Origin: Patescibacteria group bacterium
Lineage (GTDB): Bacteria > Patescibacteriota > UBA1384 > XYA2-FULL-43-10
Direction: 5' to 3'
DNA length: 64,000 nt
Assembly: GCA_041674405.1 (NCBI GenBank)
Contig: JBAYVT010000002.1
Span: 23,158 to 87,157 of the forward strand
Positions 2,911 through 50,639 of the stretch are shown here, piece after piece (positions within the stretch are counted from its first letter, which is position 1; each line of letters starts with the position of its first letter). Made by a program: the position numbers and the translations under genes. The notes beneath the pieces were generated by a model. That model did no database searches. It was not told the DNA's origin and worked only from the letters and a program-made list of their open reading frames with translations.

Positions 2911-3573
2911 ATGCAGCCACGAGACGATAAATTCATCTACACCGACGGAATCGACTATTCCAAGACGTCTGCGGATTCCGTTTGGGGAACTGAAGAGAAA
3001 ATCACGTCGAAAATTATTGACGAAACTGTTACTTCAGGAAAATGGCTAAATCTTTGTGCTGGCGATGGACGGTTCAACAATCGCCTTCTTTCACTCGCCA
3101 ATCAGGTTATCGCAGCAGATATTGATGAAAGCGCATTAGAAAAATTGACAAGAATCACGCCAAAAGAGTTGGAAAAAAAACTTAAGACAAAGATACTGAA
3201 TGTGACCGAGAAATTTCCATTCAAAGATGCGGAGTTTGACGGAATATTCTGCTCCGGCACATTACACCTGTTCCCTGAGGATATTCTTCGCAAAATCTTC
3301 AATGAAATGGATCGGGTGCTAAAGCCAAATGGTAAAATAGTCATTGATTATGCAGCCGATATTCGAAGAGAATACCCGAACGGTTCGCTCTGGGTAATCG
3401 AAAACGAGCCCAATTATTCTCTCAAAGACGCCAAAGAATTGCTTTCAAAAATGTTTTCAAACTATTTAGTGGAAATGTTCGCTGACAAATCAGAGCCAGA
3501 AAGAGTGTCGTTTAACAACAAAGAATATCAATTTTCCTCCAATTTCATTTTAATCAGAGCACGGAAAAAATGA
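2911..3573 (+). CDS. Class I SAM-dependent methyltransferase
   Basis: The track ORF 2743..3573 overlaps the eno 3' end. The plausible start is ATG 2911 (MQPRDDKF). Motif I-like LNLCAGDGRF and post-I ADIDE. The stop overlaps the gpmI start (ATGA). Confidence 0.78.
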   Translation: MQPRDDKFIYTDGIDYSKTSADSVWGTEEKITSKIIDETVTSGKWLNLCAGDGRFNNRLLSLANQVIAADIDESALEKLTRITPKELEKKLKTKILNVTEKFPFKDAEFDGIFCSGTLHLFPEDILRKIFNEMDRVLKPNGKIVIDYAADIRREYPNGSLWVIENEPNYSLKDAKELLSKMFSNYLVEMFADKSEPERVSFNNKEYQFSSNFILIRARKK

Positions 3574-5057
3574 CCAAGCCAAAAGTCATTTTAATCATTT
3601 TGGATGGGTGGGGAATCGGCGAAAAGGATGAAGATAACGCCATTCACCTCGCTAAGACTCCTAATTTCGATAAACTCTGGGAGTCTTTTTCTCATGGCAA
3701 GATAAAGACCTCCGGCGTTGCTGTTGGTTTGCCGGCAGGGCAAATGGGCAATTCCGAAGTAGGCCACCTAACTATCGGCTCCGGTAGAGTAATTGATACT
3801 GATCTTGTCAAAATTTCTAAATCGGCAGAAAGAGGAGAGTTCTCCGCAAATCACGCATTTAAATCCGTATTTGACCATGTGAAAAAGTATGATAGCATCT
3901 TACACATTCAAGGTTTGATCGGTCCAGGTGGCGTTCATTCTCATTCCAACCATTTACTTGCAATCCTCAAGGCAGCAAAAGCTACGGGCATTGAAAAAAT
4001 TGCACTCCATGCATTTACCGATGGCCGCGACACAGACGCCAAAAGTGCGAACAAATATCTAAAAGAGTTAGAAAATGCTATTGAGGAAATCGGCGTTGGC
4101 TTTATAGCTACGGCAGTCGGCCGGTTTTATGCCATGGATCGCGATGATAATTGGGATCGTTTGAAAGTTGCCGAGGATGCGATCTTCGGCGGAGTTGCAA
4201 AAACGGTTGTCCGTAAAAAACCATCCGAAATTATGGAGGAATTATATGAATCAGGCATCACCGATGAACATATCGAACCGCACATTTTTCTAGATGAAAA
4301 AGGCAATGGTTATAAAATTGGAAAAAATGACGGTGTCATATTTATTAATTTCCGCGCTGATAGAGCCAGAATGTTTTCGAAAAAAATTCTCGAAAAACAG
4401 GAGGAACTCAATCTGTTTTTTGTCACTATGACTGACTACGGCAAAGATATTGATAGCGTCATCGCTTTCCCGCCAGATAACATTGAAGATACTTTGGCCG
4501 ATATTATTTCTGAAAATAATCTTACCCAATCTCACATTGCTGAGACCGAAAAATTTGCGCATGCAACCTATTTTCTAAACGGCGGCGTCGAAGATGAACA
4601 CAAAGACGAAAAGTTTATTCTGATCGAGAGCCGCAAAGATATAAAAACCCATGACCTTGCTCCCGGCATGCGAGCTTCTGAAATTGCTGATACAACCGTC
4701 GAAGAAATTCAGAAGGGGAGAGATTTTATCTTCGTAAACTTCGCCAATCCCGACATGGTCGGCCACACAGCGGTAAAAAAAGCGGTTATTGAAGCAATTG
4801 AGACAACCGACCGAGAGCTCGGAAAACTGGTAGAGACAGCACAAGAAAAAAAGTATGAGATCGTCATATCCGCCGATCATGGAAATGCCGAAGCTCCCGA
4901 TACTGCCCACACTGTGAATCCCGTCCCCTTGATCTATATTGGCGAAAAGTATTCTAAAGTATCTAATGGCGCCCTTTCCGACATTGCGCCAACAGTTCTT
5001 CAACTTCTCGAAATCAATAAGCCCTCGCGTATGACCGGTAAGGGCTTATTGAATTAA
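3570..5057 (+). CDS. gpmI: 2,3-bisphosphoglycerate-independent phosphoglycerate mutase (copy 1)
   Basis: 495 aa. ILDGWG, GNSEVGHLTIGSGR (catalytic Ser region), HAFTDGRD, NFANPDMVGHT, SADHGNAE. Confidence 0.93.
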   Translation: MTKPKVILIILDGWGIGEKDEDNAIHLAKTPNFDKLWESFSHGKIKTSGVAVGLPAGQMGNSEVGHLTIGSGRVIDTDLVKISKSAERGEFSANHAFKSVFDHVKKYDSILHIQGLIGPGGVHSHSNHLLAILKAAKATGIEKIALHAFTDGRDTDAKSANKYLKELENAIEEIGVGFIATAVGRFYAMDRDDNWDRLKVAEDAIFGGVAKTVVRKKPSEIMEELYESGITDEHIEPHIFLDEKGNGYKIGKNDGVIFINFRADRARMFSKKILEKQEELNLFFVTMTDYGKDIDSVIAFPPDNIEDTLADIISENNLTQSHIAETEKFAHATYFLNGGVEDEHKDEKFILIESRKDIKTHDLAPGMRASEIADTTVEEIQKGRDFIFVNFANPDMVGHTAVKKAVIEAIETTDRELGKLVETAQEKKYEIVISADHGNAEAPDTAHTVNPVPLIYIGEKYSKVSNGALSDIAPTVLQLLEINKPSRMTGKGLLN

Positions 5058-7526: not shown

Positions 7527-8909
7527 TTAGATGTGCTGATCTCCCCAATCATTTTGAAAAAGTATAACATCACCCGGTTGTAGAATCTTGGATAATGAAT
7601 CATGCGCCGATTTCGCCGTTTCGTGCCAGATAATATTTTTATCGTCAAAACCAGCATTTTTAAGTCCTTCGGCAATATATGGGGTCGCGCTATTTTTAAT
7701 AAGAATTACCTTGTCGGCAACCGCTGATAATTTTTTGCCAATTTCGGTGTGAACATTTTTATTTTGGCTGCCGGACTCAACCAAACCAGGAGTGATGAAC
7801 AATTTACGCCTATCAGTAAATGTTGCAAGTACTTTGATTGCCTCTGTTACCCCTTGGGGGTTGCCGTTGTAGCTGTCATCAATCACAAGAACACCACCAG
7901 CACCCATGATTGGCTCAAGTCGGTGATTGACCGGTTTGATTTCGGAGATACCTCGTTTGATTTCAGCATTTTCCATACCAAGAGATTTTGCTACAAGATT
8001 GGCAGCTTGAACATCACCCAAAATGTATTCGCCCAGAATAGGAATCTCAATTTCTCCCAGCTCTGCAATCTCCGCTTTCCAGTGTAATTTGTCCACATCA
8101 AACTTTTTTGCTTTAACATCATTCGTGCTGAAGAATTTGACTTCTCTTGTACTGCAGTATTTTTCGTAATATTTTTTCACATTTTCATCATCGGCGTTTA
8201 AAAACACTCTGGCATTAGGTTTTGCATTTTCCACCGCTTCGAAAATTGTCGCGGCAATTCTCTCGATGCTGCCAATCCGCTCAAAGTGTGCCTCGTTGAT
8301 ACCGCTAATAACTTGAATATCTGGAGGAAAGATCCCGGCAATTCGTTTATTATCACCTTGATATTCTTCTCCAAATTCAACAATTAACATCTCTGAAGTT
8401 TTCTTATAATTTTTGATTATCCACGAGCTCATGCCAACAGCAGTATTGATGCTTTCACCCGGTGCCAACACCTTATATTTTTGCTTGAGCACAGATTCTA
8501 TTACGTTTTTAAGTGTAGTCTTACCGTAACTGCCGGCGATGCCGATAATTTTCAGCTTGGAATTTTTGACCAAATTCCGTGCTCGATTCATAACTATCTT
8601 CTTGGCCACATAATCAAAAGGGCTTAAAATCAGCAGCGAAAGCGTAAAATATATCGGCGCAATAAAAAACGAAATTATTATCCAGATAACGCCAGCCAAT
8701 GTCCCGAGTGTTAAAAATAGGTAGGTCGATACCGCAAAAATCGCGAACGAAAGAAGTGCCAGAAGCATTATTTTCTTTGTCCATACTAATCTTTTTCGAA
8801 GCGGTACATTTGCTTTATAAAACCCGCGGCGAAACAAAAGCCGAAAGTACCGAATTATTTCGTAATTCTCAATTTGCAAAAGATAAAGCTGATATGTAAG
8901 TGGATTCAT
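7527..8909 (-). CDS. Mur-ligase family protein (MurF-like) with an N-terminal transmembrane region
   Basis: 460 aa. About 110 N-terminal residues hold 2-3 hydrophobic helices (IMLLALLSFAIFAVSTYLFLTLGTLAGVIWIIISFFIAPIYF). These are followed by the P-loop GIAGSYGKTTLKN and the Mur ligase central and C-terminal pattern (DDSYNGNP). Adjacent to ddl. Confidence 0.8.
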   Translation of the reverse strand: MNPLTYQLYLLQIENYEIIRYFRLLFRRGFYKANVPLRKRLVWTKKIMLLALLSFAIFAVSTYLFLTLGTLAGVIWIIISFFIAPIYFTLSLLILSPFDYVAKKIVMNRARNLVKNSKLKIIGIAGSYGKTTLKNVIESVLKQKYKVLAPGESINTAVGMSSWIIKNYKKTSEMLIVEFGEEYQGDNKRIAGIFPPDIQVISGINEAHFERIGSIERIAATIFEAVENAKPNARVFLNADDENVKKYYEKYCSTREVKFFSTNDVKAKKFDVDKLHWKAEIAELGEIEIPILGEYILGDVQAANLVAKSLGMENAEIKRGISEIKPVNHRLEPIMGAGGVLVIDDSYNGNPQGVTEAIKVLATFTDRRKLFITPGLVESGSQNKNVHTEIGKKLSAVADKVILIKNSATPYIAEGLKNAGFDDKNIIWHETAKSAHDSLSKILQPGDVILFQNDWGDQHI

Positions 8910-11272: not shown

Positions 11273-11313
11273 ACAAAAAGCCTTGCACTGCCACTCCGGG
11301 AGTGGCAGTGCAA
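11273..11313 (-). terminator. Intrinsic terminator downstream of the aminopeptidase gene
   Basis: Perfect 13-bp stem ttgcactgccact (11283..11295) / agtggcagtgcaa (11301..11313). On the minus strand it is followed by ggcttttt. Confidence 0.7.
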
Positions 11314-15838: not shown

Positions 15839-15907
15839 AATATTCCCAACAATAAAATAATAATTTACTCGTATAGATTATCATATTAAGACTAGGATTG
15901 AAAGTCT

Positions 15908-15937
15908 GGTAGCACAGGCGGAACCGCCTGTGCTACC
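15908..15937 (-). terminator. Perfect 14-bp GC-rich hairpin downstream of the 50-aa ORF
   Basis: ggtagcacaggcgg aa ccgcctgtgctacc, 25 nt after the ORF stop. There is no strong U-tract on the minus strand, so a terminator role is uncertain. Confidence 0.5.
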
Positions 15938-15961
15938 GACGGCAGCAGAGGGTGTGGGACG

Positions 15962-16114
15962 TTATCCGGGCCAGTTGGCCGGATCGTTGTCGGGGTCGTA
16001 GGTGACTGGCTTAGCCCGTTTGCGGGCATCATTCAGGATGATCAACAGGTCGGCAAACGGCACATCGGGTACTGAGTCCGAAGCTACCTGGTAATCGCCG
16101 GCATAACCACACAT
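15962..16114 (-). CDS. Orphan 50-aa ORF in a G+C-rich islet
   Basis: Below the track cutoff. Hand translation: MCGYAGDYQVASDSVPDVPFADLLIILNDARKRAKPVTYDPDNDPANWPG, then a stop. Strong RBS caggaggtagtttt precedes the ATG. 33 of 50 codons end in G/C (hand count), unlike neighbouring genes. Confidence 0.5.
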   Translation of the reverse strand: MCGYAGDYQVASDSVPDVPFADLLIILNDARKRAKPVTYDPDNDPANWPG

Positions 16115-16167
16115 AAAACTACCTCCTGGTCCTTGATTCCCTCTTGCATTTTATATATCACTTTAGA

Positions 16168-17151
16168 TCAATATACGCTATATCCACCAAATTTTTTTAA
16201 TTCAGAAAGCAGAAGCTTTTTATTGCTTTTATCACCGCAGAAAAGCAAACATCCTCCTCCCCCAGCACCACAAGCACGGTGGGAATATCCGTATTTTTCC
16301 GCAATTTTAGCCATCATTTTCATGTTTTTTGTATAATATGCACTTGATAGATCTAGGCGCAAATTCCTATCATTGGCGATTCCTGTTTTGAGCATAGATA
16401 GGTCTTTCCCCAAGATCCCTCGCCAAATATCTTCCGCATTTTTGGCAATCTTCTTAATTAATAATGGATTTTTTTCATATCCAGATCTCATTTGAGAGTT
16501 TAGTTTTCCTGATGATCTCGATTCACCGCTGTAATATACCAGAATATGATTCAACACCCAGTTATATAACGGAGAGTTTTCTTCTCTATGGTCAATCATC
16601 TTCGCTTCTCCATATCCAGGACCACCAAAAGTCATGTAGTTCATTCCTCCGTGCCACGCAGCATAATAATCTTGCTTGCCTCCTAAAATTCCCATCGACA
16701 TTTCAACCAAATAGTTCAATTCGGGAACATTTACACCGGGAATTTCATAAAGTTCGGAAAGTGCCATGATCACTCCAACCCCTACCGCCGAAGAAGTGCC
16801 TAGGCCAGAAGCAGACGGAATGATGCCAACACTGGTAACTTTTATTTCCAATCCATCCGGCTTTAGGTTAAATAACGAAATAAAATGTCGGACAATCTGG
16901 CTAACATTATTTTTTTCTTGTTTGATAAGATCTTCAATACTCCCTTCGATTTTCTCGCCCAAATCAGGAAGTTCGAGTTTAATACCCTTGCCGCCATTCA
17001 GTTTCGCTTCAACTTTGACTTGTACCGGTAAGGCAATATTTACAACCGAGCCACGATCCGCTTTAAGTTTCTTAAGGTAGTAGCTAATATCTGTAGAACC
17101 GCCGGCAATATCTGCACGAACTGGCACGAACAGAGTTACCCTTTTCATCAT
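16168..17151 (-). CDS. GHMP-family sugar(-phosphate) kinase
   Basis: GHMP motif PSASGLGTSSAVGVGV, N-terminal RADIAGGSTD. The likely start is M8/M9 (ATGATG at 17151..17146) after AGGAGG, overlapping the stop of the upstream gene (ATGA). Confidence 0.8.
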   Translation of the reverse strand: MMKRVTLFVPVRADIAGGSTDISYYLKKLKADRGSVVNIALPVQVKVEAKLNGGKGIKLELPDLGEKIEGSIEDLIKQEKNNVSQIVRHFISLFNLKPDGLEIKVTSVGIIPSASGLGTSSAVGVGVIMALSELYEIPGVNVPELNYLVEMSMGILGGKQDYYAAWHGGMNYMTFGGPGYGEAKMIDHREENSPLYNWVLNHILVYYSGESRSSGKLNSQMRSGYEKNPLLIKKIAKNAEDIWRGILGKDLSMLKTGIANDRNLRLDLSSAYYTKNMKMMAKIAEKYGYSHRACGAGGGGCLLFCGDKSNKKLLLSELKKFGGYSVY

Positions 17152-17999
17152 TTCCTCCTGGATTTCTTCCATTCCTTAATCGCCTTTTCGTATGATTCAT
17201 AGGTACCCGTATCAAGCCACTGGCTAAAGAAGGGGTAACCAAATAATTTCCCCTCCTCCGCCAACTTTGGATATATGTCATATTCAACCATTGCCTTCCC
17301 CTTTTGGGGAACATATTTATCGATCACTTCTGGTTCCATTATAGCCATACCCGCATTAGCAAGATTACTTGGTGCTTCTGATCTCTTTGGTTTTTCGACA
17401 AAACCGGTTATTCGGCTGCCGGTAAGTGATGCAACCCCAAAACGGCTCGGGTCCTCAACCGGTGTGAGTGCAATTGTAGCTAATCCTTCATTATTTCGAT
17501 GAAAATGCATAAAATCCGAAAGATCAATTTCCGAAAGCACATCCCCCCAAACAATAAAGAAGGTTTCATTTAGAAATTTTTTTGCCAATCGCAATGGTCC
17601 TGCTGTTCCTAGTGGGGATCTTTCTTCAACATAATTTATCCTGACGCCAAATTTTGTGCCATCTTTGAAGTAATCCTTGATCATCTCCCCCTTATAACCC
17701 AATGCCAGACAGATTTCGGTAACACCATGTGAGCGCAGAAGGTCTATCACATGTTCCACCATTGGCTTTCCAGCAACTGGCAAAAGCGCCTTTGGTAATT
17801 CATAAGTAAATGGCCGAAGCCTTGTCCCCTCGCCCCCAACGAGAAGAATTGCTTTTTTGATTTGGTTTATGCCAAGGCCATTTTCGATAAGATATTCTGT
17901 CGCATGCGATCGATTTCTGATTTTTTTACCATCGATTATTGCATCAATCTTTGAAAATAGGTCTTTTTTAATGGTGACGGTTAACTTTTCTCGTTCCAT
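17148..17999 (-). CDS. Sugar-1-phosphate nucleotidyltransferase with an N-terminal ribbon-helix-helix (CopG-like) domain
   Basis: 283 aa. Residues about 5-45 (KLTVTIKKDLFSKIDAIIDGKKIRNRSHATEYLIENGL) look like a strand-helix-helix RHH. Then LLVGGEGTRLRPFTYELPKALLPVAGKPMVEH, the NTP-transferase signature. Confidence 0.82.
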   Translation of the reverse strand: MEREKLTVTIKKDLFSKIDAIIDGKKIRNRSHATEYLIENGLGINQIKKAILLVGGEGTRLRPFTYELPKALLPVAGKPMVEHVIDLLRSHGVTEICLALGYKGEMIKDYFKDGTKFGVRINYVEERSPLGTAGPLRLAKKFLNETFFIVWGDVLSEIDLSDFMHFHRNNEGLATIALTPVEDPSRFGVASLTGSRITGFVEKPKRSEAPSNLANAGMAIMEPEVIDKYVPQKGKAMVEYDIYPKLAEEGKLFGYPFFSQWLDTGTYESYEKAIKEWKKSRRK

Positions 18000-18071: not shown

Positions 18072-18461
18072 TTAGTCCGACATGATTACCCAGGGTCGCC
18101 GATCCTGTTTCTTGTATTTAACGCAGGCAACAAAACGTTCAGGATCTTTCAAAAATATCAGAGAAACAAAATTTGCTTTTTTCTTTTCTTCCCAAAATTT
18201 TTCATCGACACATAAGTCATCAGAATACATTTTACGAAATTCCGAAAGACCTTTCGATCCAAAATTTTCGTAATACAAAACATTATCTACAAAAACTCGT
18301 CCAACAATACCGCCACCTGATTTTTTAAGATAAATTTCATCTTCTTTTGCAACAGATCCGTAAGGGGCAATTTTATGAATTGAAAATCGTGACTCGATTG
18401 TTTTTTTTCCAACCAGGATATTTTCTATAGCATCACCAACAAAAATCGCTAAATGCCTCAT
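18072..18461 (-). CDS. Small PUA-like (ASCH-domain-like) protein
   Basis: 129 aa. GKKTIESRF near the N-terminus and the size are reminiscent of ASCH domains. Weak call. Confidence 0.45.
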   Translation of the reverse strand: MRHLAIFVGDAIENILVGKKTIESRFSIHKIAPYGSVAKEDEIYLKKSGGGIVGRVFVDNVLYYENFGSKGLSEFRKMYSDDLCVDEKFWEEKKKANFVSLIFLKDPERFVACVKYKKQDRRPWVIMSD

Positions 18462-18498: not shown

Positions 18499-18538
18499 AT
18501 TAAAACAAAAACAAACAGCTGTTTGTTTTTGTTTTAAT
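18499..18538. repeat. 40-nt perfect AT-rich palindrome centred on cagctg; possible bidirectional terminator or protein-binding site
   Basis: attaaaacaaaaacaaacag|ctgtttgtttttgttttaat verified as its own reverse complement. Lies between the PfkB-kinase stop and the start of the ASCH-like gene. Confidence 0.6.
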
Positions 18539-18556: not shown

Positions 18557-19570
18557 TTAATAAATCTCGACAACCATGCGTGGATTTTCAGCTACTTGCG
18601 CCTCAAGCTCCGATTTGGGCAACAACCCCCCTTGTGCTCCAATTATTCTGACAACGGAAGTAGAATTTACTATACCTGCTTTGAGTGCTTCAGATATCTT
18701 GTATTGATCGGAAAAATCCGCGTCTTTTGAATCTAAAAATTTCGCAACAAAAGCTGATGCAAAACTATCACCCGCTCCAGTCGCATCCACTCTTTCTCGA
18801 TTCATTGCTTCGATTCGATATGACCGAACCCCATCAAATGCGTAAGCGCCTTCTTTTCCATCGGTTACGATAATTATTCTTGGCCCAAGAGCATGAAGCG
18901 ATTTGGCAATTTCTTCAACCCGCGGCCGCACAGGATAATTGGAAAATTTTATTGCTTCTTCACGATTCAAAATCAATATCGAAACACATTTTAATAATGC
19001 CCTGTATTTCGAAACACCCTTTTCGATTTGCAAAGAACCAGGATTCCATGCAATTTTTGTTCCCTTCTCAGAAGCCATAGATATTAGATCCTTTTCAACT
19101 TCTTCGGTGTTTTCCCCCATCGGGCAAACAAAAAACCATTTAGTTTTTAAATTTTTTTTAGGCTTCAGCACTGAGTAATCTGAAACCCCGTGGCAAACAA
19201 AAATTGTTCTTTCGTCCCCAAGATTAAAAATGATTGAAAAATTTGTTTGGACATCATGTTTTTTAATGACCTGCGCTTCGTCTACACCCTCAATCCTAAG
19301 CCTTTCCAGTATTTTTTCAGAAGGAGAATCGTCTCCAATAGCAGTAATAATTGCAGTGTTATATCCAAGGCGATTGAACGAAACAGCAGTGTTGCATGCT
19401 GAACCGCCAATATCATAAAATGCATGTTCTAAAGAAATTTTTTCCCCCAGTTCAAAAGAAACAGATTTGCCCGAGGCATATCTCCGGCTGCTTTCAATAT
19501 CAAAAGTATGAGGCTTAACAAAAATATCCTCTGAAGCATCCCCAATTGTGACAATATCATACTTTGTCAT
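18557..19570 (-). CDS. PfkB-family carbohydrate kinase
   Basis: 337 aa. C-terminal signature DATGAGDSFASAF, N-terminal GGSACNTAVSF. Sits in an operon with fba and pgk. Confidence 0.85.
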   Translation of the reverse strand: MTKYDIVTIGDASEDIFVKPHTFDIESSRRYASGKSVSFELGEKISLEHAFYDIGGSACNTAVSFNRLGYNTAIITAIGDDSPSEKILERLRIEGVDEAQVIKKHDVQTNFSIIFNLGDERTIFVCHGVSDYSVLKPKKNLKTKWFFVCPMGENTEEVEKDLISMASEKGTKIAWNPGSLQIEKGVSKYRALLKCVSILILNREEAIKFSNYPVRPRVEEIAKSLHALGPRIIIVTDGKEGAYAFDGVRSYRIEAMNRERVDATGAGDSFASAFVAKFLDSKDADFSDQYKISEALKAGIVNSTSVVRIIGAQGGLLPKSELEAQVAENPRMVVEIY

Positions 19571-37877: not shown

Positions 37878-37906
37878 TTGACATAATTTAAAAATATTGT
37901 TAAAGT
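37878..37906 (+). promoter_or_regulatory. Near-consensus promoter driving the ncRNA-tRNA-Ile unit
   Basis: TTGACA (37878..37883), 17-nt spacer ending in an extended-minus-10 TGT, then TAAAGT (37901..37906). Confidence 0.6.
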
Positions 37907-37912
37907 CGTTTT

Positions 37913-38093
37913 TGTCGGTTTCGCGGGAGATCGAAACCTGACGGGGCGAGGGTTCAAGGAGTCCGCTCCAGTCTCCCGCCTAATGGTGGCGAAGCGAAAG
38001 CTTATTGCCGAGAGGCAATCGCAAGTAACCAATCTTGCCGCCATCCCAAACATTAAACCGCCCATGGGCGGTTAAGCTTGCCTCTTTGGAGGC
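37913..38093 (+). ncRNA. Candidate structured non-coding RNA (class not recognised), co-transcribed upstream of tRNA-Ile
   Basis: GC-rich in an AT-rich intergenic region.
- Hairpin 37914..37942, whose loop CGGGAGA (37924..37930) is complementary to TCTCCCG (37972..37978).
- GGAG/UCCG/CUCC hairpin at 37958..37969.
- A 10-bp helix 37983..37992 / 38035..38044 encloses hairpins AGC-GAAA-GCU (37993..38002) and UUGCC-GAGA-GGCAA (38005..38018).
- 18-nt palindrome 38056..38073.
- Hairpin 38080..38093 abutting the tRNA. Confidence 0.5.
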
Positions 38094-38094
38094 A

Positions 38095-38171
38095 GGGTAC
38101 GTAGCTCAGTTGGATAGAGCGTCTCCCTGATAAGGAGAAGGCCGGGGGTTCAATCCCCTCCGTACCCACCA
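38095..38171 (+). tRNA. tRNA-Ile (anticodon GAT), CCA encoded
   Basis: Hand-folded cloverleaf. Acceptor GGGTACG/CGTACCC, D arm GCTC-AGTTGGATA-GAGC, anticodon arm TCTCC-CTGATAA-GGAGA, variable AGGCC, T arm GGGGG-TTCAATC-CCCTC, discriminator A plus CCA. 77 nt. Confidence 0.95.
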
Positions 38172-38176
38172 CCCTT

Positions 38177-38215
38177 CCCTCTCTGCGCCTCGCGCAGAGA
38201 GGGTTTCCCGTTTTT
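38177..38215 (+). terminator. Intrinsic terminator after tRNA-Ile
   Basis: 11-bp stem ccctctctgcg / cgcagagaggg, followed by tttcccgttttt. Confidence 0.8.
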
Positions 38216-39715: not shown

Positions 39716-40568
39716 AACCGCTTTTTTGCGCGCCAAAAATGAACTCAATGCAATAGGCATTAAAACAGCCGAACTCGATGCCAAAGTTTTGCTTTTGCAG
39801 GTTATCGAAGAAAATGATGTTTATCTTTTGAAAAATCCCCTTTTCCCTTTAACCAACTCGCAATATTCAAAATTCCGCCGATGTATTCGCCGGCGAAAGT
39901 CTGGCGAACCGGTCGCCTATATTCTCGGCCATAAAGAATTTTTTGGTTTTGATTTTAAGGTAAACAAAAATGTCCTCATTCCACGACCGGAAACCGAACT
40001 CATCGTCGAGCAAGCAATCGAGTTTATAAAGCATAAAGTCCAAAAATTCGAAGGCAAATTAAACATCATCGATATTGGCACCGGTTCCGGCTGCATTATA
40101 ATTTCAATCGCAAATTCTCTACGGACTATGGGCTATGGACTACGTGCTAAATTGTATGCAAGTGATATTTCTGATAAAGCACTGCGAGTCGCCAGACTGA
40201 ATGCCAAGAAGAATGGGGTTAATAAACAAATTAAATTTTTCCGTTCGGACCTATTTTCGAATGGAAAATTGCCAAAAAAATTCGATTTAATTTTAGCAAA
40301 TCTGCCTTACCTAAAATCGAATTATAAAAATCTGGATTCCGAACCAAAAATCGCACTCGACGGAGGAAGGAATGGATTGAAAATTGTCAGCTCATTAATT
40401 GAGCTTTTGCCGGAAAAATTAAACCGCAGCGGCATTGCCCTCCTAGAGATTGACAACGATCAACCAGAAAAAATTAAAAAAAACGTTGGTAATATTCCAA
40501 ATTTAAAATTTGAAGAAGTAAAATCCATTCCTCATTGGCACGGCACGATAAAAATTTCAAGAAATTGA
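39705..40568 (+). CDS. prmC: Release-factor glutamine N5-methyltransferase (PrmC/HemK)
   Basis: The likely start MNLKTAF at 39705 overlaps the prfA end. Motif [12 protein letters not shown]. The catalytic tetrapeptide reads NLPY (40299..40310) instead of the canonical NPPY. Confidence 0.86.
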
Positions 40569-40593
40569 AAAATCCGCCATCGGGCGGATTTTT
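40568..40593. terminator. Bidirectional intrinsic terminator between convergent prmC and htrA
   Basis: aaaaatccgcc atcg ggcggattttt: a stem flanked by an A-run and a T-run. Confidence 0.8.
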
Positions 40594-40645
40594 CATATAC
40601 TTGTGATAATTTGCGTAAAGGATTATGCACGCTACTCTGATTATC

Positions 40646-49436: not shown

Positions 49437-49465
49437 TTGACAAAACTACCCTTATGTTATAATAT
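49437..49465 (+). promoter_or_regulatory. Near-consensus promoter in front of island ORF A
   Basis: TTGACA (49437..49442). TGT-TATAAT at 49455..49463 gives a 15-nt spacer; the alternative TAATAT at 49460..49465 gives a 17-nt spacer. The track ORF start at 49437 is just the TTG of this -35 box. Confidence 0.6.
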
Positions 49466-49508
49466 TCCAAGTTGGACTCATACACCGACATACAGGCTAC
49501 AGGAGGAG

Positions 49509-50102
49509 ATGTTCGTGATCGACAAAGTTAGAGAGTTCAAACCATGGGAGAAGCCGAGGGCTGACGGGAAGCACAGCATCAGCTTCTTGATCGGGTTTCG
49601 TGCCGTACTTGCGATCCCGATCCAGCACTATGACGCCGTTCTCGGCGGTCTCTACTGCGTCGCCGTCCTCCTGCTTAGAGAGGATGGGGACCATGAGATC
49701 AGAGACCGGTCGAGCGGGCTCTTGGAAATCTTGGCAGGCCGAGAACAGGATAACCTGCCACTTTCCGATCCGGCCAAGCTCGAGATGTTGGTCGGGGTCC
49801 TGTCTTCGATCTCATCCAACTCGACCGCCTACCGGCTGTACAGGAACACGGCAACCCGCAGGGTCGTGATCGTCCGCGAGGAAGGCGAAATCGGCGAAGG
49901 GGCTACAGAGAAACCTGAGAAAAGACCAGCAGGCATCGCTGCCTGGTCCGTCGAAAGGTTCAATGAATGTCTCGCTCGTGGCCACCACCGGTTCGAGGGA
50001 CGCATTCTGGTGAACAACCGAGGGGGCCAGCCTTACGAGCTGATGGTGTGCACTGACTGCAGAGTCACGATCGCAGCGATGCAAGTGATCCCGGGCAAAT
50101 AG
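49509..50102 (+). CDS. Orphan protein A of the G+C-rich island (about 195 aa)
   Basis: AGGAGG at 49501..49506. The start is ATG 49509 (2-nt spacing) or, more plausibly, GTG 49515 (8-nt spacing). 73 of the first 100 codons end in G/C (hand count), unlike host genes. C-terminal Cys/His pattern NECLARGHHRF...MVCTDCRV. No family recognised. Confidence 0.7.
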   Translation: MFVIDKVREFKPWEKPRADGKHSISFLIGFRAVLAIPIQHYDAVLGGLYCVAVLLLREDGDHEIRDRSSGLLEILAGREQDNLPLSDPAKLEMLVGVLSSISSNSTAYRLYRNTATRRVVIVREEGEIGEGATEKPEKRPAGIAAWSVERFNECLARGHHRFEGRILVNNRGGQPYELMVCTDCRVTIAAMQVIPGK

Positions 50103-50126
50103 CCCAAGAAGGAGGATAGAGCCGAG

Positions 50127-50160
50127 CGGCCCCGATTCAATTCGGGGTCGTTCTGCGTTT
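50127..50160 (+). terminator. Intrinsic terminator after island ORF A
   Basis: Stem cggccccga / tcggggtcg (one G-U pair) with loop ttcaat, then ttctgcgtttt. Confidence 0.6.
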
Positions 50161-50177
50161 TATCCACAGCAATATTT

Positions 50178-50207
50178 TTGACAGCGGTATATATCAAGTG
50201 GTAAGTC
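50178..50207 (+). promoter_or_regulatory. Possible promoter in front of island ORF B
   Basis: Perfect TTGACA (50178..50183), but only a weak -10 (TGgTAAGTC around 50199..50207). Confidence 0.35.
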
Positions 50208-50246
50208 TAAAATAGATCGTATTACTTCCGCATCGGGGTGATTTTG

Positions 50247-50639
50247 ATGGGAAGTTCGTCAGGTCGGCGTCGACGCCCGTCTTCGGTATGGAAGCAAGCA
50301 TACCGCGCGAATGGTAAAGCTCACAAGCTCACCAAGTCGGGCGAAGACGAGAAGGCTGCCGAGGCGTTTTACCAGAAGGTAGGCTGTGTCTGCGAGACAT
50401 CGCTTACCCCAGGCTTTACGCAATGGCAATGGGATCCTGTCGTAGAAGCCGTCTCGGTATCTCTAGCACACCCGCCGAAGAAAGAACGGCACAAGCGACT
50501 CCATGTTCCTCCAGACGTACTGGAGGAATACATCAGAGGGAACGGCTTTTCAAGCCGCGAAAGGAACTTCCTTCTGAAGCGCCTTCGGCAAGTACTTCGG
50601 TACCGAGAGAAAGGCGCTCCCCAACCTTACGTTCGGTAG
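50247..50639 (+). CDS. Orphan protein B of the G+C-rich island (about 130 aa, basic)
   Basis: ATG 50247 lies 6 nt after ggggtg. The track start GTG 50238 is an alternative. Arg/Lys-rich (GRRRRPSS, KKERHKRLH, LKRLRQVLRYREK). G+C-rich codon usage. No family recognised. Confidence 0.6.
   Translation: MGSSSGRRRRPSSVWKQAYRANGKAHKLTKSGEDEKAAEAFYQKVGCVCETSLTPGFTQWQWDPVVEAVSVSLAHPPKKERHKRLHVPPDVLEEYIRGNGFSSRERNFLLKRLRQVLRYREKGAPQPYVR

Follow-up and report, generated by a model that had tools for sequence, protein, structure and literature searches.

What is the short G + C-rich segment that separates a GHMP-family sugar kinase gene from tig in a genome of the Patescibacteria group, and does it hold a gene? 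We addressed this question in a stretch of 64,000 nucleotides (contig JBAYVT010000002.1 of GenBank assembly GCA_041674405.1, positions 23,158 to 87,157 of the forward strand), which is called the window below. The segment, called the islet, runs from 15905 to 16135 of the window. A preliminary description, made from the sequence alone, had pointed to its composition and to an open reading frame (ORF) of 50 codons within it, and had proposed that it may come from the same donor or element as a second G + C-rich region at 49.4-50.7 kb (the island). With moderate confidence, we regard the islet as a small, lineage-specific protein gene of foreign composition, which has its own Shine-Dalgarno (SD) sequence and a terminator-class hairpin and sits in a replaceable slot before tig.

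Composition and anatomy of the islet

The G + C content of the islet was 0.584, compared to a mean of 0.403 for the window (standard deviation 0.050, 231-nt windows), which places it about 3.6 standard deviations above the mean. Within the 64 kb, an equal G + C content was found only in a patch at the tRNA-Ile gene (near 38.1 kb) and in the island. The G + C-rich segment was indeed present between the kinase gene and tig, in a gap of 329 nt from the stop of the kinase (16168) to the start of tig (15838). The features of the locus are as follows.

16168..17172, minus strand: GHMP-family sugar kinase, the gene 5' of the islet
16115..16167, minus strand: spacer of 53 nt from the kinase stop to the ORF start (sequence reading)
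15962..16114, minus strand: ORF of 50 codons plus stop, ATG to TAA (translated sequence, codon phase, annotation)
15938..15961, minus strand: G + C-rich spacer of 24 nt from the stop codon to the hairpin (sequence reading)
15908..15937, minus strand: perfect 14-bp hairpin, G + C-rich (stem 67% G + C; inverted-repeat search)
15839..15907, minus strand: predicted promoter and 5' leader region of tig, A + T-rich and host-like (promoter scan, comparison with the related contig L164)
14639..15838, minus strand: tig, the gene 3' of the islet

The ORF at 15962..16114 encodes a peptide of 50 aa, caggaggtagttttATG (translation: MCGYAGDYQVASDSVPDVPFADLLIILNDARKRAKPVTYDPDNDPANWPG), and is preceded by caggaggtagtttt and the ATG. 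The 53-nt spacer is A + T-rich on its 5' side, where it contains aaagTGATATATAAAatg, and carries at its 3' end the SD sequence cAGGAGGt (16122-16127), 7 nt before the ATG. The ORF, the AGGAGG-type ribosome-binding site and the perfect hairpin were thus all found where they had been placed. A recount of the codons ending in G or C gave the same number as before, 33 of the 50, which corresponds to a G + C content at third codon positions (GC3) of 0.66-0.67. At the first and second positions the values were about 0.64 and 0.43-0.44; this position-specific distribution is a coding pattern and is likewise seen in the island gene.

The peptide is acidic (5.5 kDa, isoelectric point 4.1, net charge approximately -4.5). 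AlphaFold, run on the single sequence, gave a mean predicted local distance difference test (pLDDT) score of 73, with one helix at residues 20-33 (pLDDT approximately 89) and coil on either side. In this model the helix, FADLLIILNDARKRA, would be amphipathic, with proline/aspartate-rich tails on both sides.

The arms of the hairpin, GGTAGCACAGGCGG and CCGCCTGTGCTACC, lie at 15908-15921 and 15924-15937. They are 100% complementary and only 2 nt (tt) stand between them, so that the hairpin is effectively one of 13 bp with a GUUC loop. By chance, a perfect 14-bp hairpin is expected approximately 0.002 times per 64 kb (an estimate from 64,000 positions x 9 loop sizes x 4^-14).

It had been expected that default gene callers would miss so short an ORF. 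This is not the case: it is called in NCBI, JGI and ENA records and is publicly annotated as MFA7243965.1 (locus tag WC080_01610), and the same product is called on an ENA k141 contig (137.9 kb) and on a JGI 3300037067 contig. The ENA and JGI contigs show 100% identity to the window across 10.2 and 6.6 kb, respectively. Since the islet is identical in these independent assemblies and in the NCBI metagenome-assembled genome, it is not an artefact of a single assembler, and a chimera is disfavoured.

Evidence for a coding sequence

The geometry of the start of the ORF is not random. When the islet was shuffled with its dinucleotides preserved, 0.125% of the shuffled sequences had an AGGAGG followed after 4-10 nt by an ATG that opens at least 45 codons (P = 0.00125), and 0.48% had the same geometry with GGAGG instead. 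In the whole window, AGGAGG stands 4-10 nt before the first codon of an ORF with 40 or more codons in four instances; one of these belongs to the adjacent GHMP kinase (called start 17148), which has the same type of SD sequence.

The phase of the ORF was assessed with a frame-specific codon model, trained with the islet left out on 934 codons from other G + C-rich genes of the group (the ORFs of the island, the homologue P0123 of one of them, and genes found before tig in relatives, including three acyl carrier protein (ACP) genes). In leave-one-out controls the model chose the true frame for all 25 chunks (49 codons each), which scored 11.35 +/- 5.8 bits on average. The frame of the islet ORF scored +11.0 bits, on par with the true-frame controls, and the four out-of-phase frames scored -15 to -31; a score of +11.0 bits in any frame was reached by 0.13% of the shuffles. 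The codon usage is alien to the host: only 0.03% of 50-codon chunks of host genes reach the score of the islet ORF, and its GC3 is 0.66 versus 0.37 for the host.

The position of the hairpin points in the same direction. The 64-kb window contains five perfect hairpins of at least 10 bp, all of them intergenic, and the other four lie 6-59 nt past the 3' ends of genes or of tRNA-Ile. The islet hairpin is found 24 nt past the stop of the small ORF and 230 nt past that of the kinase. The coding reading is supported by this spacing, which resembles that of the other terminator hairpins of the genome when it is measured from the stop of the ORF.

On the other side of the hairpin, 15839..15907 forms the downstream boundary of the islet and has, directly after the hairpin, CTTTCAAT, which is also present in L164. 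A promoter-like ATGATA-16-TATTAT lies ahead of tig at 15884..15857 (minus strand). From its sequence and placement, the hairpin would belong to the terminator or insulator class and would close the upstream transcription unit just before the promoter region of tig.

Several observations weigh against a functional gene. The length of the ORF is uninformative: 67% of the dinucleotide shuffles of the islet contain, in one frame or another, an ORF of 50 aa or more (16% when an ATG start is required), so that length is no evidence of coding. The in-phase antisense frame scored +10.7 bits, nearly equal to the ORF frame; the codon model therefore settles the phase and not the strand, and the minus strand was chosen because the SD sequence, the ATG and the open frame are found there, the antisense frame being closed by a stop. 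The codon-phase signal would also persist in a recently inactivated gene fragment. The tail of the hairpin, AGACUUUCAAUC, has no proper U-run, and because of this the hairpin was passed over by a scan for canonical intrinsic terminators, which asks for 5 or more T within 8 bases. A sigma-70 consensus scan detected no promoter for the ORF itself in the spacer; given this result, aaagTGATATATAAAatg is a possible extended -10 element that we infer from its sequence only. Finally, an exhaustive phmmer scan of 1.84 billion representative proteins returned the peptide itself and nothing else.

The other searches had the same outcome. The preliminary description had proposed a search of metagenomes and phage databases with the peptide, which returned no homologue: a word-indexed search of 5.8 billion clusters found the peptide only, and there was no match in viral contigs and phage genomes. 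All recovered copies were 100% identical, and the peptide is thus a singleton. A plasmid collection gave a single match at chance level (E = 0.7), and Pfam one sub-threshold match (DUF6373, E = 0.056, 13.9 bits where the cutoff is 25). No match came from PHROGs, NCBIfam or PADLOC, nor from the PDB at E up to 10. A literature search on G + C-rich orphan genes in Patescibacteria turned up only general papers on orphan genes.

If the islet is a functional small gene, it would work as follows. It occupies the last position of a sugar-activation group (an NTP (nucleoside triphosphate)-transferase gene, then the GHMP kinase), directly upstream of tig. Its transcript would either be a read-through product of kinase transcription or start at a weak extended -10 element, TGATATATAAA, in the 53-nt spacer. 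Translation would start from the near-perfect SD sequence AGGAGGT with its spacing of 7 nt. The hairpin, placed 24 nt past the stop, may end or stabilise the transcript and insulate the promoter of tig, even with a tail that has no U-tract. The product would be an acidic peptide of 50 residues, and we would guess at binding to a partner rather than at enzyme activity.

In kind, such a gene is ordinary, namely an orphan small protein gene that is already annotated as a hypothetical protein. It resembles bacterial ORFans and the mini-genes of phages known as morons, which also combine a short ORF, a strong ribosome-binding site, a terminator hairpin, an off-host composition and the lack of homologues, and which sit between conserved housekeeping genes with a content that varies among relatives. 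Bacterial ORFans and morons are usually more A + T-rich than their host, whereas the islet has 18 points more G + C than its host, and the searches gave it neither a relative in phages or plasmids nor a mobile-element gene at its flanks. The hairpin likewise resembles Rho-independent terminators in being a G + C-rich perfect stem-loop soon after a stop, and it shares its class and position with the other long hairpins of the window and with those before tig in relatives. It differs from them in the missing U-tract and in its 14-bp stem with a spacer of 2 nt, which is longer than typical.

The slot before tig in related genomes

Scans for tig in species-level genomes and metagenomes gave a best identity of 57%. 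Relatives with tig identities of 74-60% were obtained from a large protein collection and their contigs were compared; the comparison covers ten relatives, several of them on short contigs. The genes around tig keep the order PGK, aldolase, PfkB kinase, NTP-transferase, the slot, tig, MFS transporter and ClpP. The slot was occupied as follows (tig identity in brackets).

L163 (74%): ACP gene, 85 aa, 4453-4710 (NCBIfam acyl carrier protein, 73 bits, above the cutoff)
L164 (72%): ACP gene, 83 aa, 377-628
L165 (71%): empty, spacer of 98 nt
L166 (65%): orphan ORF of 121 aa with caggaggtgtttcgATG
L168 (64%): orphan ORF of 47 aa with gaggagg
L170 (62%): ACP-like gene, 99 aa, 3482-3781
L169 (61%): irregular tRNA-like element on the opposite strand, no ORF
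L171 (60%): ACP-like gene, 89 aa, 3569-3838
L003 (57%): GHMP kinase (as in the window) followed by approximately 600 bp of 52-61% G + C with orphan ORFs

The preliminary description had suggested that the presence or absence of the islet be checked in related genomes. It was missing from relatives with up to 74% tig identity, and a search for strain variants that would allow a comparison of nonsynonymous and synonymous substitution rates (dN/dS) gave none closer than this, these genomes being without the islet. The slot of the window shares no DNA similarity with the slots of the relatives. L166 and L168 have both flanks in common and differ in the cassette between them.

The content of the slot varies, and its organisation recurs. 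In L163, L164, L166 and L168 a slot gene is followed by a G + C-rich hairpin and then by the promoter region of tig. The slot genes have a GC3 of 0.58-0.72 versus 0.34-0.45 in their hosts; an exception is the ACP gene of L170, with an overall G + C content of 39%. Because the slot genes of the relatives are alike in these respects, G + C-richness, a strong SD sequence and a hairpin are properties of the slot in this clade and not peculiar to the present genome. The ACP gene is the likely ancestral occupant, since it recurs across the 60-74% range of tig identity. As the slot can hold an ACP gene, other orphans, a tRNA-like element or nothing, the islet gene was most likely acquired. The acquisition was probably from an unsampled donor or mobile element, after the split from the relatives with 74%-identical tig, and we infer horizontal acquisition rather than birth in place.

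The genes up to 5 kb to the left and right of the islet encode no integrase or recombinase domain, no second copy of any part of the islet was found within the 64-kb window (the only part of the genome examined), and viral contigs gave no match to the hairpin sequence. An integron gene cassette was considered and rejected, as there is no integrase nearby and the hairpin is a perfect palindrome, unlike the imperfect attC hairpin with its extrahelical bases (the attC covariance model was not run).

The slot ACP genes of L163, L164, L170 and L171 are comparable to the islet gene in position, orientation, small size and the hairpin that follows them. They have a GGAGG/GGGGG-type SD sequence, and three of the four have, as the islet does, a GC3 above that of the host. 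They differ in having no sequence relation to the islet gene, which encodes 50 instead of 83-99 aa and has no DSL phosphopantetheine motif.

These stand-alone ACP genes, located between a sugar-1-phosphate nucleotidyltransferase gene and tig, are of interest in themselves. Patescibacteria are generally considered to be without fatty-acid synthesis. An ACP in such organisms is a little odd, and so is its codon usage: three of the four exceed their host, with a GC3 of 0.58-0.72 in L163 and L164 and an overall G + C content of 0.49 versus 0.37 in L171.

Two further slots deserve description. The element in L169 (3583-3658, minus strand) was reported by ARAGORN as 'tRNA-???', with a two-base anticodon call and the T-arm GGTTCGAATCC. 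Apart from the present genome, only L003 has a GHMP kinase at this place (76% identity for the NTP-transferase); its block at 3227-3850 is unrelated to the islet and contains two orphan ORFs of at least 112 aa and of 75 aa, the latter after ggaggagaggcagaATG, and the 3' end of the kinase lies under a masked run of N. L169 has in addition a bAvd / 23S_rRNA_IVP gene (of the type accessory to diversity-generating retroelements) at 7554-7922, just past clpP; no equivalent was called at that position in the locus of the window.

Alternative explanations and other regions of the window

The alternative that we take most seriously, although we consider it rather unlikely, is that the islet is a non-functional 5' remnant, with the SD sequence, the start and part of the coding region, of a foreign gene once longer and then shortened by a deletion. 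A singleton without homologues is what this would leave, the length of the ORF is not significant, and the slot has been gained, lost and replaced in relatives, being empty in L165 and without a gene in L169. Within the ORF, the GC3 rises from 0.5 over the first 20 codons to approximately 0.77 over the last 30, which could mark a composite origin. Moreover, the N-terminus of the peptide, MCGYAG, is of the MCGxxG form and resembles the MCG[IF]xG, with the catalytic Cys, at the start of the class II, or N-terminal nucleophile (Ntn), glutamine amidotransferases PurF, GlmS and AsnB; the purF of this genome itself starts with MCGIVG.

However, no candidate parent could be identified. The resemblance to the amidotransferases is limited to the hexapeptide: for the other 44 residues, comparison with reference N-termini of E. 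coli and B. subtilis and with that of the purF in the window gave p = 0.08-0.57, there was no match in the PDB, and the best tblastn match had an E value of 0.2 (280-nt target), so that a 5' remnant of such a gene was rejected. A decayed ACP gene, suggested by an apparent Y.GD..V..S...F.[ED]L...L seen by eye, was rejected as well (shuffle-calibrated Smith-Waterman p = 0.64-0.72). A profile of the four slot ACPs scored below 0 bits in all six frames of the islet, as it did in every frame of every slot without an ACP, and neither Pfam PF00550 nor NCBIfam gave a match. Homology to the 47-aa peptide of L168, based on M.CG..DY..AS.S seen by eye, was not supported (p = 0.195), and the pairwise shuffle tests against candidate parents gave p values of 0.2-0.97 overall. 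In addition, the SD sequence, the ATG, the open in-phase frame and the normally spaced terminator are all intact. Genomes of Patescibacteria are streamlined, and intact signals of a dead gene are not expected to last long in them.

Unlikely to a greater degree is that, in this clade, the position between the sugar-nucleotide genes and tig is a hotspot of gene capture or gene birth, where unrelated G + C-rich mini-genes, each with a near-perfect SD sequence and a terminator, arise repeatedly without an integrase, tRNA junction or repeat. The 50-aa ORF, the 47-aa ORF of L168, the 121-aa ORF of L166 and the 600-bp block of L003 would then be independent products, which we find just as doubtful. 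The same low probability applies to the accompanying proposal on the uniformly high GC3, which would reflect either where the genes came from (for example DNA of hosts or phages that these episymbionts take up) or the capture or birth process as such. We rate the hotspot low because the data, from ten relatives of which several are on short contigs, fit ordinary gain and loss over a long divergence equally well.

A common donor or element for the islet and the island, as proposed in the preliminary description, is slightly less probable still. Flanked by purF and ligA on the opposite strand, the island has the following two ORFs.

49437-50639 region, plus strand: long ORF of 221 aa (195 aa from the GTG at 49515 after caggagg), with a TTGACA...TATAAT-like promoter in the A + T-rich left flank
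50238..50639: adjoining ORF of 133 aa, no family match

The shared compositional oddity was borne out, in that both regions have a high GC3 (0.66 for the islet, 0.68 and 0.56 for the island ORFs) with the same position-specific G + C pattern, and so was the caggagg-type SD sequence, which in the island is ctaCAGGAGGagatgttcGTG at 49515. Both are orphans or near-orphans, and the synonymous codon usage of the islet is nearer to the island model, with a log-likelihood ratio (island over host model) of +6.95 versus -9.85 +/- 4.87 for host chunks. A common donor was not supported, though. The two regions have no nucleotide or six-frame similarity and no common dinucleotide signature. The k-mer comparison that had been suggested, run here on dinucleotides, gave a distance of 0.223 between islet and island, practically that between islet and host (0.227); within the island, single pieces were only 0.123 +/- 0.03 away from the whole, so that the islet is approximately 3 standard deviations farther and outside the spread of the island. 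The regions are 33 kb apart and have no repeats, integrase or tRNA junction in common. A high GC3 and a strong SD sequence are not specific for a donor, since unrelated slot genes of other genomes have both.

The long ORF of the island has exactly one homologue in the 5.8 billion clusters, P0123 (L172, 413-982), with 56% identity. This homologue is found on a short contig, in a block of 50-64% G + C with flanks of 34-37%. As judged from these sequences, the pair shows that G + C-rich near-orphans in A + T-rich genomes can be real conserved genes; it says nothing on a common donor with the islet. The island gene (195/221 aa) and the islet ORF are alike in their high GC3, caggagg SD sequence, A + T-rich flanks and near-orphan status, but only the former has a 56%-identical homologue and a canonical TTGACA/TATAAT-like promoter.

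Very improbable is a structured noncoding RNA or a cis-regulatory leader of tig (riboswitch, attenuator or arrest peptide), in which the ORF would be incidental or a leader peptide. G + C-rich islets in A + T-rich genomes are often RNA genes, one G + C-rich patch of the window is the tRNA-Ile, and the islet stands directly upstream of tig. Also, a segment of 251 nt folded better than its shuffles (z = -5.3, minus strand). With the hairpin removed, however, the remaining 201 nt folded no better than shuffles (z = -1.24 on the minus and -0.42 on the plus strand), and all excess folding is thus due to this one hairpin. No Rfam 15 family reached its gathering threshold, and relaxing the limit to E = 10 added only spurious microRNA-type matches on the hairpin. 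ARAGORN detected no tRNA or transfer-messenger RNA in the islet. The sequences before tig in relatives are unrelated or absent, which argues against a conserved tig leader; the hairpin is approximately 70 nt away from the start of tig, leaves the SD sequence of tig uncovered and has the promoter-like elements of tig downstream of it. A period-3 codon signal is not expected in an RNA gene. An arrest or leader peptide of the SecM or MifM type was rejected on similar grounds, as relatives show no conserved linkage of the ORF to tig and promoter-like elements stand between the hairpin and tig. Given the SD geometry, the +11.0 bits, the ordinary folding outside the hairpin and the lack of an Rfam match or of a repeat in the window, we prefer a coding reading of the islet to a structured RNA or repeat, in agreement with the preliminary description.

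A chance reading frame in a G + C-rich spacer, or an assembly artefact, has equally little probability: ORFs of this length are common in shuffles and there are no homologues, but the joint probability of SD sequence, ATG and ORF is 0.001-0.005, no more than 0.13% of shuffles attain the codon-phase score, and the same sequence is present in assemblies from different pipelines and samples (ENA, JGI and the NCBI genome).

Taken by itself, the islet is one more orphan small gene, and little changes if it is real. It is a worked example in two respects: a G + C-rich islet in an A + T-rich genome need not be an RNA gene, and the case for coding is made by codon phase and SD geometry rather than by the length of the ORF. 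It is mildly unusual that the islet gene is more G + C-rich than its host and that several unrelated mini-genes with a high GC3 are found in the slot of relatives. A slot with an ACP gene or unrelated high-GC3 orphans, together with a second family of G + C-rich orphans (the island ORF and P0123), raises the question of where episymbiotic Patescibacteria get new genes and why such genes stay G + C-rich.

The third G + C-rich patch of the window (37890-38094, plus strand; 52-60% G + C) is located just upstream of tRNA-Ile (38095-38171). It forms several clean hairpins (z = -3.2, a folding equalled by none of 200 shuffles), contains no convincing ORF and matches no Rfam family, and could be a small RNA that is not yet described or a leader co-transcribed with the tRNA. 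Downstream of the tRNA, at 38177-38203, there is a terminator hairpin of 12 bp.

An A + T-rich hairpin is at 18499-18538, where ATTAAAACAAAAACAAACAG and CTGTTTGTTTTTGTTTTAAT form a perfect palindrome of 40 bp with 20-bp arms, no loop and 20% G + C. It is found 18 nt past the stop of a PfkB-type kinase gene (18557..19570, minus strand) and upstream of an ORF with an ASCH domain (18072..18461, minus strand), and is probably a terminator, although an unusually long one. Perfect hairpins of 15 bp and 13 bp are present at 11283-11313 and 40566-40595, 59 and 50 nt past gene ends, respectively. The latter is flanked by symmetric A- and T-runs (TGAAAAATCCGCC...GGCGGATTTTTCA) and resembles a bidirectional terminator.

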